A DNA stretch of 7,371 nt, from assembly GCA_000004985.1 (NCBI GenBank), contig GG739143.1; one strand, 5' to 3'. Both the position numbers and the translations under genes were made by a program. The notes beneath the pieces are model-generated. The model saw nothing but the letters and a program-made list of their open reading frames with translations. It was not told the origin of the DNA and searched no databases. Position 1 is the stretch's first letter. The number at the start of each line of letters is the position of its first letter. This document shows, in pieces, positions 1 to 7,371 of the stretch. The DNA is from Naegleria gruberi (taxonomy: Eukaryota).

Positions 1-236
1 CAACTTTTTGATAGGTTTCAAAACAAACTGGCAGAAACCTCTTTCCAACTGTCTTGCTTTGAGTCTTTCAACCATTTACCACTCTCAGCATCAAAATAAT
101 TATCTCCCCACAATTTTTCTGCCACAACATTCACATCCATTCCAAACTTTTTCGAATAAAACTTGGCAAAATCATGCAAATTAAAAGCCCAACCTCCCAA
201 TGCAGATCCAAAAGTAACATGACCATTCTGTGGATC
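1..236 (-). pseudogene. eEF2-family (elongation factor 2-like) gene fragment. It is 5'-truncated at 236 and frameshifted near 46-52, and continues past the window start.
   Basis: The minus-strand translation from 236 down to about 48 reads DPQNGHVTFGSALGGWAFNLHDFAKFYSKKFGMDVNVVAEKLWGDNYFDAESGKWLKDSKQDS. This aligns residue by residue with the eEF2 G'-region (yeast: [55 protein letters not shown]). That frame then hits TGA at 18-20. Homology continues in the next frame from about 48 down to 1 as LERGFCQFVLKPIKKL (human eEF2: LPRTFCQLILDPIFKV; yeast: LERAFNMFILDPIFRL). This indicates a 1-nt indel. Upstream of 236 all three frames are closed (TAA at 237-239 and others), so the GTPase domain is missing. 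Codons are non-optimal (gga, gtg, gcc, tcg, gag), unlike a highly expressed EF2. Confidence 0.7.
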
Positions 237-254
237 TTAGGATTATCATTTTGT
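236..254. repeat. Left copy of a perfect 19-bp inverted repeat (cttaggattatcattttgt).
   Basis: The exact reverse complement occurs at 1828-1846. The match does not extend beyond 19 bp in either direction. The copy abuts the truncation point of the eEF2-like fragment. Confidence 0.9.
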
Positions 255-362
255 ATTTAAGGAATTTAACAGCTGAAGGTTATCTATATGGATTCTATAT
301 ATTACATTTTGATCATTTTTTGCCAGTTTTTATGATTTTACATATTTTAGTTTGTTATCTCA

Positions 363-376
363 ATATATATATATAT
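363..376. repeat. (AT)7 microsatellite.
   Basis: atatatatatatat is read directly from the sequence. The flanking sequence tctcaat...tttcaaa resembles the flanks of the 1697-1710 copy. Confidence 0.95.
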
Positions 377-652
377 TTCAAATTTAAACCCCACTTATTA
401 ATTAGTAGCTTAATTCTTTATAGTTATAAATGGAGAAAAACCTAAATTATTGATCAATAGGAGTTGCTTAATGACTACTAAAACATAAAAATTGTTCAAG
501 ATGAATAGAAACATTATCAGACTCGTATCATTTCGTTCTGTTGGTATTCTGTTAAAATACCTTTTACTACTTAAACACAAAGAAGAACAATTCTTGGAGT
601 TTTTTTGCAAACTTTCCCCCTTACTGTAGTGCAATAAAAATTGAACATTCAA

Positions 653-666
653 ATATATATATATAT
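653..666. repeat. (AT)7 microsatellite.
   Basis: atatatatatatat is read directly from the sequence. Confidence 0.95.
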
Positions 667-736
667 TGATAAAAATAGAACTCGTTTCTAATTTCACAAC
701 ACAACACCCCATAAATTGGATAGTTGTAATTTTCTA

Positions 737-749
737 ATATATATATATA
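737..749. repeat. (AT)6 microsatellite.
   Basis: The run is preceded by ttctaa, as at 1691-1696. Confidence 0.9.
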
Positions 750-1346
750 ACAGAATTATTACAATATTCGCCTTATTTAAGGTGTTCTATTTGTTTTCTA
801 TCTAGTAATTTAACTTTAATGTTGGTATCATTGTTTTTCAAAGAGAAAATCTTACTAAATAATCTTGAATGTAATCTCTCCTGTTACTTTTCACCCTTAT
901 TGAATAATATTTTCTTGATTGCTCTCCTTTTATGAGAAGAAGTTTGGGTAACATAATATATATTTTCATTTATTTAACATGGCTAAAAAAAATACAATAA
1001 ATATCAATTTCTGCATTAATTGGATTGTAGAGGGTCAATATTTACTGAGGGTGTTGAAGACTTACCTTTACAGGAAGTTGGTACAACATGATTTATTGTT
1101 CTCTCCTAACAAACCTGTAATGGGATGTTTGAAAATCGTTGACAAGAACATTTGTACGTTTTTAATTATTGATAGAGAATGCTGCTTACCAAGATGTAGT
1201 ACATGTTGAACAGCATTCAAAACAATACAACTGAGTGCATTGTGATATGTTGATATCACCAAATCGGCATCACTATTTTAGGATGTTGTTCAAAGAGGAA
1301 ATACTTTTTCTGAAAAACAGTACATTTAAACACTTTCATAGTTTGT

Positions 1347-1361
1347 TATATATATATATAT
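1347..1361. repeat. (TA)7 microsatellite.
   Basis: tatatatatatatat is read directly from the sequence. Confidence 0.95.
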
Positions 1362-1696
1362 TACAGAAAGTTCTCCTATTACCCAAATACTTACTTGTTA
1401 TTTTTCTGTAAGTTTTGATCCTCTTCAAGTCAGATTGAATTAGTCCAATTATTGTTTAAATAAACAAGATTATTTGCTGAAATGCTTGAAATCGGAATTC
1501 ATTAAACTGATTTTGTCATAATGCATGTTGTTGAAAATATTTCAATTTAATAATCTTTAAATATTGATTAAGAAAGGAAATCAGTAAATTTATCTTTAAA
1601 TAATATATTAGTTTCTTTATGGAAAGGTATGAGTTTTCGTGGTTATTTTATTGATCAAGTTATCCTTATTTAGCTTCCTTATTAACTTTTGTTCTA

Positions 1697-1710
1697 ATAT
1701 ATATATATAT
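1697..1710. repeat. (AT)7 microsatellite.
   Basis: It has ttctaat on the left and tttcaaa on the right, which resembles the copies at 363 and 737. Confidence 0.95.
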
Positions 1711-1792
1711 TTCAAAACAAATCAAGAGAATACATTTTTCGAAAAGTTTTATCTCTTGATAGTTAGTAATCTGAAAGGGAATCTTCACCTAT

Positions 1793-2410
1793 TTATCTCT
1801 CAGTTTTCATAAAGAAAAATATATAAAACAAAATGATAATCCTAAGTTTTTGAACAATCTCCCATTCTGCTTGATTTTCAACACTATTGAATTGGGTAGA
1901 TGGTGTAGAAAGATCCATACACAATCTCCAAATACAAGTCAAACATCTTTGCAAGACGTGGTAATGTTGCTTGGTCATTCTTGTTCTGATTGGTTGATTA
2001 TTTGTTACTGGGAGTGGGCTGTTTCTATCGCTACCAGAACTAGTACCGAAAGGATTGGATGAACCTACAGATGGTGGAGCACTATTAGGTCCGTTATTAA
2101 CTTGGTAAATGGATTGAATGGTACTGATTGGTTGGTATAATTGCAAAATGGAAATCATTAATTTGTAAACGTGTATTCTGTAAACATAATTCCAAATAAG
2201 TTTCAATCTTTCGCAACCAGTATTTCTATTCAAATTATTATTAATCAAAACATCACACAATAAATCCAAACAGAAGAGGGAAGTATCTAAGTCTCTTTCA
2301 TAATAGTAATAGGTTGAGGTAGTTGCATTTTGTTGTTTGGTTGTTTTCAATGTGAACAAGTGAGGAGCAGAATGAATGTGCCAATTAAAAAATGCAAGAC
2401 GATAAATCAT
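1793..2410 (-). CDS. Hypothetical protein of about 205 aa from the ATG at 2410-2408. The ORF is open to 2452 but that codon is TTG. It is tentatively Mediator Med7-like.
   Basis: A 219-codon open frame sits in a region where the plus strand is full of stops. The central region uses strongly yeast-preferred codons (gct cca cca tct gta ggt tca tcc ... aga). The protein has an S/P/N/G-rich low-complexity middle. The motif pair LDLLCDVLI ... ERLKLIWNYVYRIH, with spacing of about 22 residues, resembles the Med7 core LDLLDILI ... EDLKLLFVHVHHL. Total size matches Med7 (about 220 aa). The last 17 codons (LRIIILFYIFFFMKTER) are encoded by the inverted repeat and AT-rich DNA, so the native C-terminus may have been replaced. 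Confidence 0.5.
   Translation of the reverse strand: MIYRLAFFNWHIHSAPHLFTLKTTKQQNATTSTYYYYERDLDTSLFCLDLLCDVLINNNLNRNTGCERLKLIWNYVYRIHVYKLMISILQLYQPISTIQSIYQVNNGPNSAPPSVGSSNPFGTSSGSDRNSPLPVTNNQPIRTRMTKQHYHVLQRCLTCIWRLCMDLSTPSTQFNSVENQAEWEIVQKLRIIILFYIFFFMKTER
1828..1846. repeat. Right copy of the perfect 19-bp inverted repeat (acaaaatgataatcctaag).
   Basis: This is the exact reverse complement of 236-254. It lies in the last 17 codons of the minus-strand ORF 1793-2452, where coding-like codon usage gives way to AT-rich sequence. Confidence 0.9.
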
Positions 2411-2494
2411 CAATTCCCGAAGTTGTTGTTGATGATGAAGAAACAAATCCAACTATTCCAGGACATGAATCCATCATTGAACAAAATCCTTCTT
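2392..2494 (+). CDS. Possible 5' end of a plus-strand gene (MQDDKSSIPEVVVDDEETNPTIPGHESIIEQNPS...) that runs into the assembly gap.
   Basis: The ATG sits in an aaaaaATGc context. All 34 visible codons are yeast-preferred (gaa gtt gat cca att tca caa), giving an acidic N-terminus. It overlaps the 5' end of the minus-strand ORF 1793-2410/2452, so at most one of the two start assignments is correct. Confidence 0.25.
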
Positions 2495-5400
2495 NNNNNN
2501 NNNNNNNNNNNNNNNNNNNNNNNNNNNNNNNNNNNNNNNNNNNNNNNNNNNNNNNNNNNNNNNNNNNNNNNNNNNNNNNNNNNNNNNNNNNNNNNNNNNN
2601 NNNNNNNNNNNNNNNNNNNNNNNNNNNNNNNNNNNNNNNNNNNNNNNNNNNNNNNNNNNNNNNNNNNNNNNNNNNNNNNNNNNNNNNNNNNNNNNNNNNN
2701 NNNNNNNNNNNNNNNNNNNNNNNNNNNNNNNNNNNNNNNNNNNNNNNNNNNNNNNNNNNNNNNNNNNNNNNNNNNNNNNNNNNNNNNNNNNNNNNNNNNN
2801 NNNNNNNNNNNNNNNNNNNNNNNNNNNNNNNNNNNNNNNNNNNNNNNNNNNNNNNNNNNNNNNNNNNNNNNNNNNNNNNNNNNNNNNNNNNNNNNNNNNN
2901 NNNNNNNNNNNNNNNNNNNNNNNNNNNNNNNNNNNNNNNNNNNNNNNNNNNNNNNNNNNNNNNNNNNNNNNNNNNNNNNNNNNNNNNNNNNNNNNNNNNN
3001 NNNNNNNNNNNNNNNNNNNNNNNNNNNNNNNNNNNNNNNNNNNNNNNNNNNNNNNNNNNNNNNNNNNNNNNNNNNNNNNNNNNNNNNNNNNNNNNNNNNN
3101 NNNNNNNNNNNNNNNNNNNNNNNNNNNNNNNNNNNNNNNNNNNNNNNNNNNNNNNNNNNNNNNNNNNNNNNNNNNNNNNNNNNNNNNNNNNNNNNNNNNN
3201 NNNNNNNNNNNNNNNNNNNNNNNNNNNNNNNNNNNNNNNNNNNNNNNNNNNNNNNNNNNNNNNNNNNNNNNNNNNNNNNNNNNNNNNNNNNNNNNNNNNN
3301 NNNNNNNNNNNNNNNNNNNNNNNNNNNNNNNNNNNNNNNNNNNNNNNNNNNNNNNNNNNNNNNNNNNNNNNNNNNNNNNNNNNNNNNNNNNNNNNNNNNN
3401 NNNNNNNNNNNNNNNNNNNNNNNNNNNNNNNNNNNNNNNNNNNNNNNNNNNNNNNNNNNNNNNNNNNNNNNNNNNNNNNNNNNNNNNNNNNNNNNNNNNN
3501 NNNNNNNNNNNNNNNNNNNNNNNNNNNNNNNNNNNNNNNNNNNNNNNNNNNNNNNNNNNNNNNNNNNNNNNNNNNNNNNNNNNNNNNNNNNNNNNNNNNN
3601 NNNNNNNNNNNNNNNNNNNNNNNNNNNNNNNNNNNNNNNNNNNNNNNNNNNNNNNNNNNNNNNNNNNNNNNNNNNNNNNNNNNNNNNNNNNNNNNNNNNN
3701 NNNNNNNNNNNNNNNNNNNNNNNNNNNNNNNNNNNNNNNNNNNNNNNNNNNNNNNNNNNNNNNNNNNNNNNNNNNNNNNNNNNNNNNNNNNNNNNNNNNN
3801 NNNNNNNNNNNNNNNNNNNNNNNNNNNNNNNNNNNNNNNNNNNNNNNNNNNNNNNNNNNNNNNNNNNNNNNNNNNNNNNNNNNNNNNNNNNNNNNNNNNN
3901 NNNNNNNNNNNNNNNNNNNNNNNNNNNNNNNNNNNNNNNNNNNNNNNNNNNNNNNNNNNNNNNNNNNNNNNNNNNNNNNNNNNNNNNNNNNNNNNNNNNN
4001 NNNNNNNNNNNNNNNNNNNNNNNNNNNNNNNNNNNNNNNNNNNNNNNNNNNNNNNNNNNNNNNNNNNNNNNNNNNNNNNNNNNNNNNNNNNNNNNNNNNN
4101 NNNNNNNNNNNNNNNNNNNNNNNNNNNNNNNNNNNNNNNNNNNNNNNNNNNNNNNNNNNNNNNNNNNNNNNNNNNNNNNNNNNNNNNNNNNNNNNNNNNN
4201 NNNNNNNNNNNNNNNNNNNNNNNNNNNNNNNNNNNNNNNNNNNNNNNNNNNNNNNNNNNNNNNNNNNNNNNNNNNNNNNNNNNNNNNNNNNNNNNNNNNN
4301 NNNNNNNNNNNNNNNNNNNNNNNNNNNNNNNNNNNNNNNNNNNNNNNNNNNNNNNNNNNNNNNNNNNNNNNNNNNNNNNNNNNNNNNNNNNNNNNNNNNN
4401 NNNNNNNNNNNNNNNNNNNNNNNNNNNNNNNNNNNNNNNNNNNNNNNNNNNNNNNNNNNNNNNNNNNNNNNNNNNNNNNNNNNNNNNNNNNNNNNNNNNN
4501 NNNNNNNNNNNNNNNNNNNNNNNNNNNNNNNNNNNNNNNNNNNNNNNNNNNNNNNNNNNNNNNNNNNNNNNNNNNNNNNNNNNNNNNNNNNNNNNNNNNN
4601 NNNNNNNNNNNNNNNNNNNNNNNNNNNNNNNNNNNNNNNNNNNNNNNNNNNNNNNNNNNNNNNNNNNNNNNNNNNNNNNNNNNNNNNNNNNNNNNNNNNN
4701 NNNNNNNNNNNNNNNNNNNNNNNNNNNNNNNNNNNNNNNNNNNNNNNNNNNNNNNNNNNNNNNNNNNNNNNNNNNNNNNNNNNNNNNNNNNNNNNNNNNN
4801 NNNNNNNNNNNNNNNNNNNNNNNNNNNNNNNNNNNNNNNNNNNNNNNNNNNNNNNNNNNNNNNNNNNNNNNNNNNNNNNNNNNNNNNNNNNNNNNNNNNN
4901 NNNNNNNNNNNNNNNNNNNNNNNNNNNNNNNNNNNNNNNNNNNNNNNNNNNNNNNNNNNNNNNNNNNNNNNNNNNNNNNNNNNNNNNNNNNNNNNNNNNN
5001 NNNNNNNNNNNNNNNNNNNNNNNNNNNNNNNNNNNNNNNNNNNNNNNNNNNNNNNNNNNNNNNNNNNNNNNNNNNNNNNNNNNNNNNNNNNNNNNNNNNN
5101 NNNNNNNNNNNNNNNNNNNNNNNNNNNNNNNNNNNNNNNNNNNNNNNNNNNNNNNNNNNNNNNNNNNNNNNNNNNNNNNNNNNNNNNNNNNNNNNNNNNN
5201 NNNNNNNNNNNNNNNNNNNNNNNNNNNNNNNNNNNNNNNNNNNNNNNNNNNNNNNNNNNNNNNNNNNNNNNNNNNNNNNNNNNNNNNNNNNNNNNNNNNN
5301 NNNNNNNNNNNNNNNNNNNNNNNNNNNNNNNNNNNNNNNNNNNNNNNNNNNNNNNNNNNNNNNNNNNNNNNNNNNNNNNNNNNNNNNNNNNNNNNNNNNN

Positions 5401-5507
5401 NNNNNNNNNNNNNNNNNNNNNNNNNNNNNNNNNNNNNNNNNNNNNNNNNNNNNNNNNNNNNNNNNNNNNNNNNNNNNNNNNNNNNNNNNNNNNNNNNNNN
5501 NNNNNNN
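2495..5507. other. Assembly gap of 3,013 N. Its true size is unknown.
   Basis: It is an uninterrupted run of N. The long ORFs reported across it are artefacts of N being translated as X. Confidence 0.99.
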
Positions 5508-6192
5508 CAAATTCTAATTTAATGTTATTCATGAGAAGAGATGCAACAAATAGCTCTATTTCATCATTAGGAATAACTTTGACAAAATCTGTAATGAACG
5601 AGTAGTATGTTTGGTCACTTGGGCAAATAGTAGAGTAAAACGAAAGATTTTTCATTGATTCCATAACAAGTTCCTGTCTACGCACGATCGTTTTTGCAAA
5701 ATAAGAGAGATAGAGTTGAGATAAACCTTCAATCCAGTATCTTTCATTTTCAAAGTATTCGATATCAAATTGTTGCTTCATATTATTGGCAACATCGCCA
5801 CCATCAATATTTCTAAAAGTATTAAAAACACTCTTCAGTTCATTCCAAATATTGTCGTTCTTGGGACTATTCTCCAATATTGTTGAATAGATTTCGTAAT
5901 TGTGCATTATTTGTGTGTTTCGTTCTCCCTTAATGTTCTTGATGGACATTGAAAAAAACACCAAAGCAAGAGCCTCCCTTAGTCTTTGTTTTTGAAATAA
6001 TGCAAATGATTGTTCATTCACTCTCTGTTCAAATGTTACACTGCTCTGAAGAAACTCTGTATGTAATGCGAGAGTAGGATGTTCAATAATGCACTGACAT
6101 ATTATTAAGGCAGTTTGATCATCTGTGTTATCAACGGCATTTTCGGCCTGTACAGAGTAATCCTTAATATGTAATGATACTCTTTCTGACAT
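5508..6192 (-). CDS. N-terminal 228 codons of a large unidentified protein, which continues into the gap.
   Basis: The 685-nt frame is open from ATG 6192-6190, in a caacaaaaaaaATGtc context, to the gap edge. Yeast-like codon usage and a normal amino-acid composition argue against a chance ORF in roughly 33% GC DNA. I could find no recognisable family motif. Confidence 0.7.
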
Positions 6193-6592: not shown

Positions 6593-7363
6593 ATGAATAG
6601 TTTCGATAATTTATTGTTGACAGATGATCTCTTGAGAGGAATATATGGCTATGGTTTTGAAACCATGAGTTCTATCCAACAAGAAATATTAAATCCACAA
6701 CAACAACAAACACAACCATCACAACAACAACCATCAAACAGTTCAATGATCGTTCAAGGTCGATCAGGAGAGGGCAAAACCATTGGATTAATTATTAAAG
6801 TATTGAAAACAGTTGATTTTCAAAAGGATGATGATGATAATGGTGTAGAATTGCAAGGTTTAATTCTTGTTCCGAATGAATATTTAGGAAAACAAATAAC
6901 CAAAGCCATGATTTACTTGGGTGAATATATTAGAAATGCAACAATTTCTGATAATGTGAATGAAAATCCGAGAATTCTCATAACCACTCCATCAATAGTC
7001 ATTGAAAAGAAGATTAATGTATCCAAATTGAAAATTCTAGCATGTGATGAAATGAATGTCATGTTACAAATTGGATCACCAACTAGAAGATGTATTAAGA
7101 GAATTTTACAACAAATTCCAAACGAAACTGAAATTATTTGTGTTGGTTCAAGTAAATTGCCACCAGAATGTTATATACATGATCAGCATTTGAAACATTC
7201 ACGTATCATTCAACAAGATAGTGAATTGGGAAGAAATATTTCTGAAAGTTTTGTTTATTGTCCAAAATTGGAGCAAAAACTTGCAACATTGAAGGAACGT
7301 GTCAACACTACTTTTCCATCCAATGTAATATTTTGTAATAATTCTAAAAACAAGGAGAAATAG
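6593..7363 (+). CDS. eIF4A-family DEAD-box paralogue with degenerate catalytic motifs, either a pseudo-helicase or a decaying copy. It ends at an in-frame TAG inside the expected RecA2 domain.
   Basis: [20 protein letters not shown] (4-23) is nearly identical to the eIF4A Q-motif region ([20 protein letters not shown]). The P-loop is GRSGEGKT (6758-6781) rather than AQSGTGKT. Motif Ia is PNEYLG (6872-6889) rather than PTRELA. Motif Ib is TTPSIV rather than GTPGRV. Motif II is DEMN (7046-7057) rather than DEAD. Motif III is GSS (7145-7153) rather than SAT. The C-terminal [14 protein letters not shown] aligns to eIF4A TQAVIFCNTRRKVE. The frame is intact for 256 codons and the A-rich start context is good. 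Confidence 0.75.
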   Translation: [256 protein letters not shown]

Positions 7364-7371
7364 AAGAGATT

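Follow-up and report, generated by a model that had tools for sequence, protein, structure and literature searches.

The DEAD-box proteins eIF4A and eIF4A-III (DDX2/DDX48) are the closest described relatives, by sequence, of a Naegleria gruberi protein from a small family of the amoeba genera Naegleria and Willaertia, and they resemble it in size and in its two-RecA layout. The N. gruberi protein shares with eIF4A the Q-motif region (..SSIQQ), the GKT of Walker A, the D-E of motif II, the strand VIFCN, the GID sequence and the motif VI sequence R-GRSGRFGR. Nevertheless, there are clear differences between the two. Identity is only about 30%, DEAD is replaced by DEMN and ARGID by WYGID, and at the aligned positions of motifs Ia, Ib and III the sequences PNEYLG, TPSI and GSS are found where PTRELA, TPGR and SAT are expected. 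Also unlike eIF4A, the protein has less sequence between motifs IV and V, a Gln-rich insert ahead of Walker A, and the family-specific tail YLPSTL(D/E)ELDF...GS..CKYQRIM.

Two other kinds of described case bear on the locus reported here. Redundant small scaffolds and unmerged contig ends in Sanger whole-genome shotgun drafts are like it in having an N gap, gene identity to a large scaffold and a truncated gene model. Where such redundant scaffolds carry indels from read tails, the likeness extends to a doublet that has lost a base 10 nt from the end, although in the present case the error is one that we infer. Nonsense alleles and readthrough genes, on the other hand, are like it in placing an in-frame stop inside a conserved domain, but differ in that here a frameshift makes the stop and the same frame downstream is without homology.

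The assembly of N. gruberi is a Sanger assembly of 784 scaffolds and 1,977 contigs (PMC9928731 Table 1; PMC6125883 Table 1), and strain NEG-M is described as heterozygous in the passage of PMC9928731 that cites Fritz-Laylin 2010. The stretch of DNA analysed here (the window) is one entire small scaffold, 7,371 bp long, of the draft genome of Naegleria gruberi NEG-M. The record ends at position 7371, with no sequence 3' of the last base. Positions 2495-5507 are a scaffold gap filled with 3,013 N, and for this reason the very long 'ORFs' listed across that interval are meaningless. At the right-hand end of the scaffold lies an ORF that a preliminary description had singled out for its in-frame TAG, past which homology to eIF4A seemed to continue. 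Here, we compare this ORF with a full-length copy of the gene from a large scaffold of the same assembly and weigh the explanations for the stop.

The truncated gene model and its full-length copy

At 6593..7360, the plus strand carries codons 1-256 of a gene that homologue search, Pfam and PDB alignment identify as eIF4A-like (DEAD-box-derived) but divergent. Together with its stop, the ORF (6593..7363, plus strand) corresponds to a public 'predicted protein' of 256 aa (NAEGRDRAFT_76775 / XP_002668314.1 / EFC35570.1), which it matches at 100% over the full length. A second protein, NAEGRDRAFT_62154 / XP_002682203.1 / EFC49459.1 (P0002), has 375 aa and is encoded on a scaffold of 941,567 bp in the same assembly. 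Its residues 1-256 are identical to the window ORF at 256 of 256 positions (100%), and after residue 256 it reads L-E-E-I-L. A mention of the locus tags or accessions of these proteins was not found in the literature.

The eIF4A-like nature of the ORF, which the preliminary description had read from the letters, is borne out by a Pfam DEAD match (PF00270; 47.3 bits, E = 2.4e-12; cut-off 26) and by the best solved relatives in the PDB, namely human eIF4A-III (E = 5.8e-17) and eIF4A-I (E = 4.9e-14), with residues 3-252 aligned. Motif I/Walker A, GRSGEGKT, was located by PDB and family alignment at aa 56-63 (6758..6781, plus strand); its GKT is kept, and G59, G61, K62 and T63 are invariant in the family alignment. 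Motif II reads DEMN, not DEAD, at aa 152-155 (7046..7057, plus strand), again with D-E kept in the family alignment. The alignment with eIF4A-III places a motif IV-like strand, VIFCN, at aa 245-249 (7325..7339, plus strand); the second RecA-like domain begins with this strand, and of that domain's motifs it is the only one inside the window. The Gln-rich insert that separates the Q-motif from Walker A spans aa 35-50 (6695-6742); it is paralogue-specific and is absent from eIF4A as well as from two paralogues (P0003 and P0004).

The part absent from the 256-aa model is the C-terminal 119 aa of P0002. Its identity to the paralogue P0003 is 54% (E = 3e-35), and to the Willaertia protein it is 40% across 68 aa (E = 5e-15). 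With the long copy, the alignment to eIF4A-III (E = 4.3e-22) reaches residue 332, scores 82 bits where the short ORF had 65, and passes through WYGID at the motif V position and RTGRSGRFGR at motif VI. The C-terminal region is present in every family member extending that far, with conserved blocks DDWYGID, HFDV, RSGR..R.G and YLPSTL(D/E)ELDF; the exception is P0004, a paralogue from N. gruberi whose 262-aa model ends soon after the stop position. A Pfam Helicase_C domain was not found in the 375-aa copy at E < 0.1, and an AlphaFold2 model of this copy, built from an eight-sequence alignment, was poor (mean pLDDT 58.8, pTM 0.46). As to whether the long form is a real gene, the evidence says yes: its predicted product has 375 aa, with a second RecA-like domain that appears degenerate but recognisable. 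A protein ending at residue 256 would lack a conserved domain.

The stop codon and the missing base

Positions 7340-7371 read AATTCTAAAAACAAGGAGAAATAGAAGAGATT. Translation confirms the in-frame apparent stop TAG at 7361..7363 (plus strand), with which the annotated 256-aa model ends. It lies within the conserved core of the helicase, shortly past the strand VIFCN (motif IV). The earlier observation that the stop sits at an aligned eIF4A position also holds, since Leu257 of the full-length copy aligns with the conserved Leu of VDW-L-TEKM in eIF4A-III and the stop falls on that residue. Lys256 is encoded by AAA at 7358-7360. Translation of 7363..7371 (plus strand) in the shifted frame gives GAA GAG ATT, which is Glu258-Glu259-Ile260 of the full-length protein, and between Lys256 and Glu258 there are just two bases, TA (7361..7362, plus strand). 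These are the surviving bases of the Leu257 codon and, by the single-base edit test described below, the site of the missing base. The scaffold thus ends with AAA TA GAA GAG ATT, and the deletion-bearing form of the junction is AAATAGAAGAGATT.

Every single-base insertion, deletion and substitution was enumerated over the last 40 nt, and an edit was retained when the translation equalled the prefix of P0002 to the last codon. Identity was restored only by T or C inserted before 7361, or by T inserted before 7362, which makes the codon for Leu257 TTA or CTA; among all single-base edits of the last 40 nt, the number of restoring substitutions and deletions was zero. Because only the insertion of T or C restores identity, and because no intron reconciles the two models, the assembled copies appear to differ by one nucleotide in their homologous stretch, the TTA/CTA of the long copy being read back from its protein. 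Judged from these two sequences, the TAG results by accident from the deletion of 1 nt, a frameshift in a Leu codon.

The proposal that homology persists beyond the stop was sound insofar as the truncation is not a natural gene end, but the continuation (E-E-I, 7363-7371) runs in the shifted frame. In the frame of the ORF itself, TAG is followed by two whole codons only, AAG AGA (K-R), and by TT. The match to K-R-L that had been seen in this frame does not stand: K-R is offset by one position from the T-K-R-L of eIF4A, the long copy has L-E-E-I-L, and the resemblance to ...TKRL is an out-of-frame coincidence. Neither version of the junction (AAAAACAAGGAGAAA[N]TAGAAGAGATT) was found in JGI metagenome contigs by exact-pattern matching (0 hits). 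Where an in-frame stop lies a few bases from a scaffold end, all three frames should be compared before it is interpreted.

Origin of the frameshift

We consider the missing base most likely to be an artefact of sequencing or assembly, with no biological basis. The window is a small, unplaced 7.4 kb scaffold of a Sanger draft, and its right-hand 779 nt duplicate the 5' two-thirds of NAEGRDRAFT_62154. One base of a TT (or CT) doublet would have been lost 10 nt from the scaffold end, converting AAA TTA GAA GAG ATT to AAA TA GAA GAG ATT; the frame shift would then create TAG by chance, and the gene caller would take it as the stop of a 256-aa model. We infer that the missing base is a base-calling error in the low-quality tail of a read at the contig end. 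The loss of one base from a doublet is a typical base-calling slip in the tail of a Sanger read. The discrepancy between the copies is confined to the terminal bases of the scaffold, with 256 of 256 aa identical and then a 1-nt indel, and this sole protein-level difference lies within the last 11 of 779 homologous nt, for which the chance would be 1.4% if it were uniformly placed. A frameshift is likewise found at the opposite end, about 40-72 nt from the left end of the scaffold, in an EF-2-like fragment; frameshifts near both scaffold ends suggest low-quality read tails. We also count the small size and the gap of the scaffold in favour of an error. Under the artefact reading, the 941,567-bp scaffold is expected to read AAATTAGAAGAGATT (or AAACTAGAAGAGATT) at the junction. 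A draft-assembly error had been listed in the preliminary description; it becomes the best explanation here, although by a different mechanism, the deletion of 1 nt.

The alternative is a real 1-nt deletion, carried by a second haplotype or by a recent duplicate of NAEGRDRAFT_62154 with a frameshift null allele. A real allelic indel is possible because NEG-M is reported to be heterozygous, as cited above. The flanking ORFs of the window are without an identical annotated counterpart on the big scaffold, such that the genomic context may differ, and N. gruberi has several paralogues, among which P0004 (262 aa) is also annotated as short. The window may stem from a second haplotype or a true second locus, or it may be an overlapping piece that fills a gap, and a full-length duplication of the big-scaffold locus is not demonstrable because the 227-aa ORF and the EF-2-like fragment of the window (see below) have no identical annotated protein. 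Against a real allele or duplicate, however, stand the zero aa differences over 256 codons followed by a lone difference 10 nt from the scaffold end, the second frameshift near the other end, and the conservation across Naegleria and Willaertia of the C-terminal domain that would be removed. We therefore regard a real deletion as unlikely, and it is rather unlikely that NEG-M carries a full-length gene together with a truncated, RecA1-only version of a member of the degenerate 'DEM(D/N)-box' eIF4A-like family. The truncated RecA1-only protein envisaged in the preliminary description would require the frameshift to be a real allele, in which case the 256-aa product would consist of RecA1 and one strand of RecA2.

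A nonsense substitution in a Leu codon, for example TTG to TAG, would need AAATTGAAGAGATT on the big scaffold. A single change does separate TAG from the Leu codon TTG, and eIF4A has a conserved Leu at the position of the stop, but the reverted frame would read L-K-R and not L-E-E-I, and identity with the full-length copy is not recovered by any single substitution within the last 40 nt. With the downstream match sitting in the shifted frame, the nonsense mutation suggested earlier is refuted at the protein level, and we assign it a negligible probability. Programmed decoding, be it readthrough of TAG, reassignment of TAG or a programmed ribosomal frameshift at AAA-TAG, is favoured by the homology after the stop and by nothing else. 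The same-frame K-R is unlike the family, and an identical full-length copy needs no recoding; the 256-codon ORF has no other in-frame TAA or TAG and encodes Gln by CAA 20 times and by CAG once, which is a standard-code pattern; and the paralogues and orthologues are ordinary ORFs at the stop position. Readthrough, which had been raised earlier, finds no support, because K-R follows the stop where the full-length copy has L-E-E-I, and any such decoding is extremely improbable.

Genes of N. gruberi do contain introns, and an intron could start near the stop with coding resumed downstream. In the related N. lovaniensis, 47% of genes are intron-containing (PMC6125883). However, no GT occurs after 7335, and the only GT..AG candidates run from 7325 or 7335 to 7363, a length of 29-39 nt, and would delete residues that are present in the full-length protein. 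For DNA that is the same in both copies, the intron is thus refuted by the sequence, given the lack of a GT beyond 7335 and the presence in P0002 of all residues through K256; its probability is vanishingly small. Even taken jointly, the recoding, nonsense and intron accounts are very improbable.

With the artefact as the favoured origin of the frameshift, the result has mainly housekeeping value: NAEGRDRAFT_76775 / XP_002668314.1 almost certainly duplicates NAEGRDRAFT_62154 in truncated form. The 256-aa model should not be counted as a separate gene, as a RecA1-only helicase, as a nonsense allele or as evidence of recoding.

A DEM(N/D) family in Vahlkampfiid amoebae

Besides the window ORF, the family comprises P0002, P0003, P0004, P0010/P0157, P0011 and P0012; by source names, N. 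gruberi contributes four paralogues, and N. lovaniensis and Willaertia magna contribute one protein each. When 1.84 billion representatives were searched exhaustively with HMMER, only five proteins fell below E = 1e-30, and ordinary eIF4A-like helicases came next. Motif II is DEMD or DEMN in all of the family members (6/6), motifs Ia, Ib and III are changed, and the tail YLPSTL(D/E)ELDF..GS..CKYQRIM is kept. Among the proteins searched, this eIF4A-derived family is seen only in Vahlkampfiid amoebae (Naegleria, Willaertia), and a mention of it was not found in the literature. The protein may work, or may once have worked, like an eIF4A-type DEAD-box protein; a predicted helicase or ATPase activity is doubtful, and on sequence grounds the protein is best described as a lineage-restricted, degenerate eIF4A derivative. 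The family may merit separate attention, independent of the TAG. Its N. lovaniensis member (P0011, 1132 aa) has an N-terminal extension of ~700 aa that is unrelated to helicases and begins with a hydrophobic, signal-peptide-like segment; P0011 may be a merged gene model.

Other features of the scaffold

A tRNA scan and an Rfam scan of the whole window were both empty. At the left end, the isolated EF-2-like coding fragment lies on the minus strand at 233..72 and 60..1 and corresponds to yeast EF2 aa ~204-284 (PDB EF-2, E = 1.4e-15). It is split over two reading frames, with the switch in the 40-72 nt interval given above. Upstream EF-2 exons were not found in 234..2494, and the homologue search found no annotated protein containing the fragment. 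Either it is the remnant of a pseudogene or its split is a further error at a read end.

Positions 236-257 and 1825-1846 form an inverted repeat of 22 nt with 95% complementarity (CTTAGGATTATCATTTTGTATT / AAAACAAAATGATAATCCTAAG), which flanks an AT-rich, ORF-poor segment of 1.6 kb. One arm abuts the EF-2-like fragment, and the other lies in the last codons of a 219-aa minus-strand ORF (2452..1793). No target-site duplication was seen at the repeat; the segment may be a non-autonomous TIR element. Five (TA)6-7 tracts, at 364, 654, 738, 1347 and 1698 (within 360-1710), have similar, TTCTAATATATATATATATTTCAAA-like flanks, and none would be expected by chance (200 shuffles).

On the other side of the gap, a minus-strand frame at 6192..5511 has 227 codons from the ATG at 6192 and runs into the gap. 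Pfam and homologue searches with this 227-aa ORF found no Pfam domain, no homologue and no annotated protein. It is probably a real, unannotated, lineage-specific gene, because it is so long in DNA of ~32% GC.
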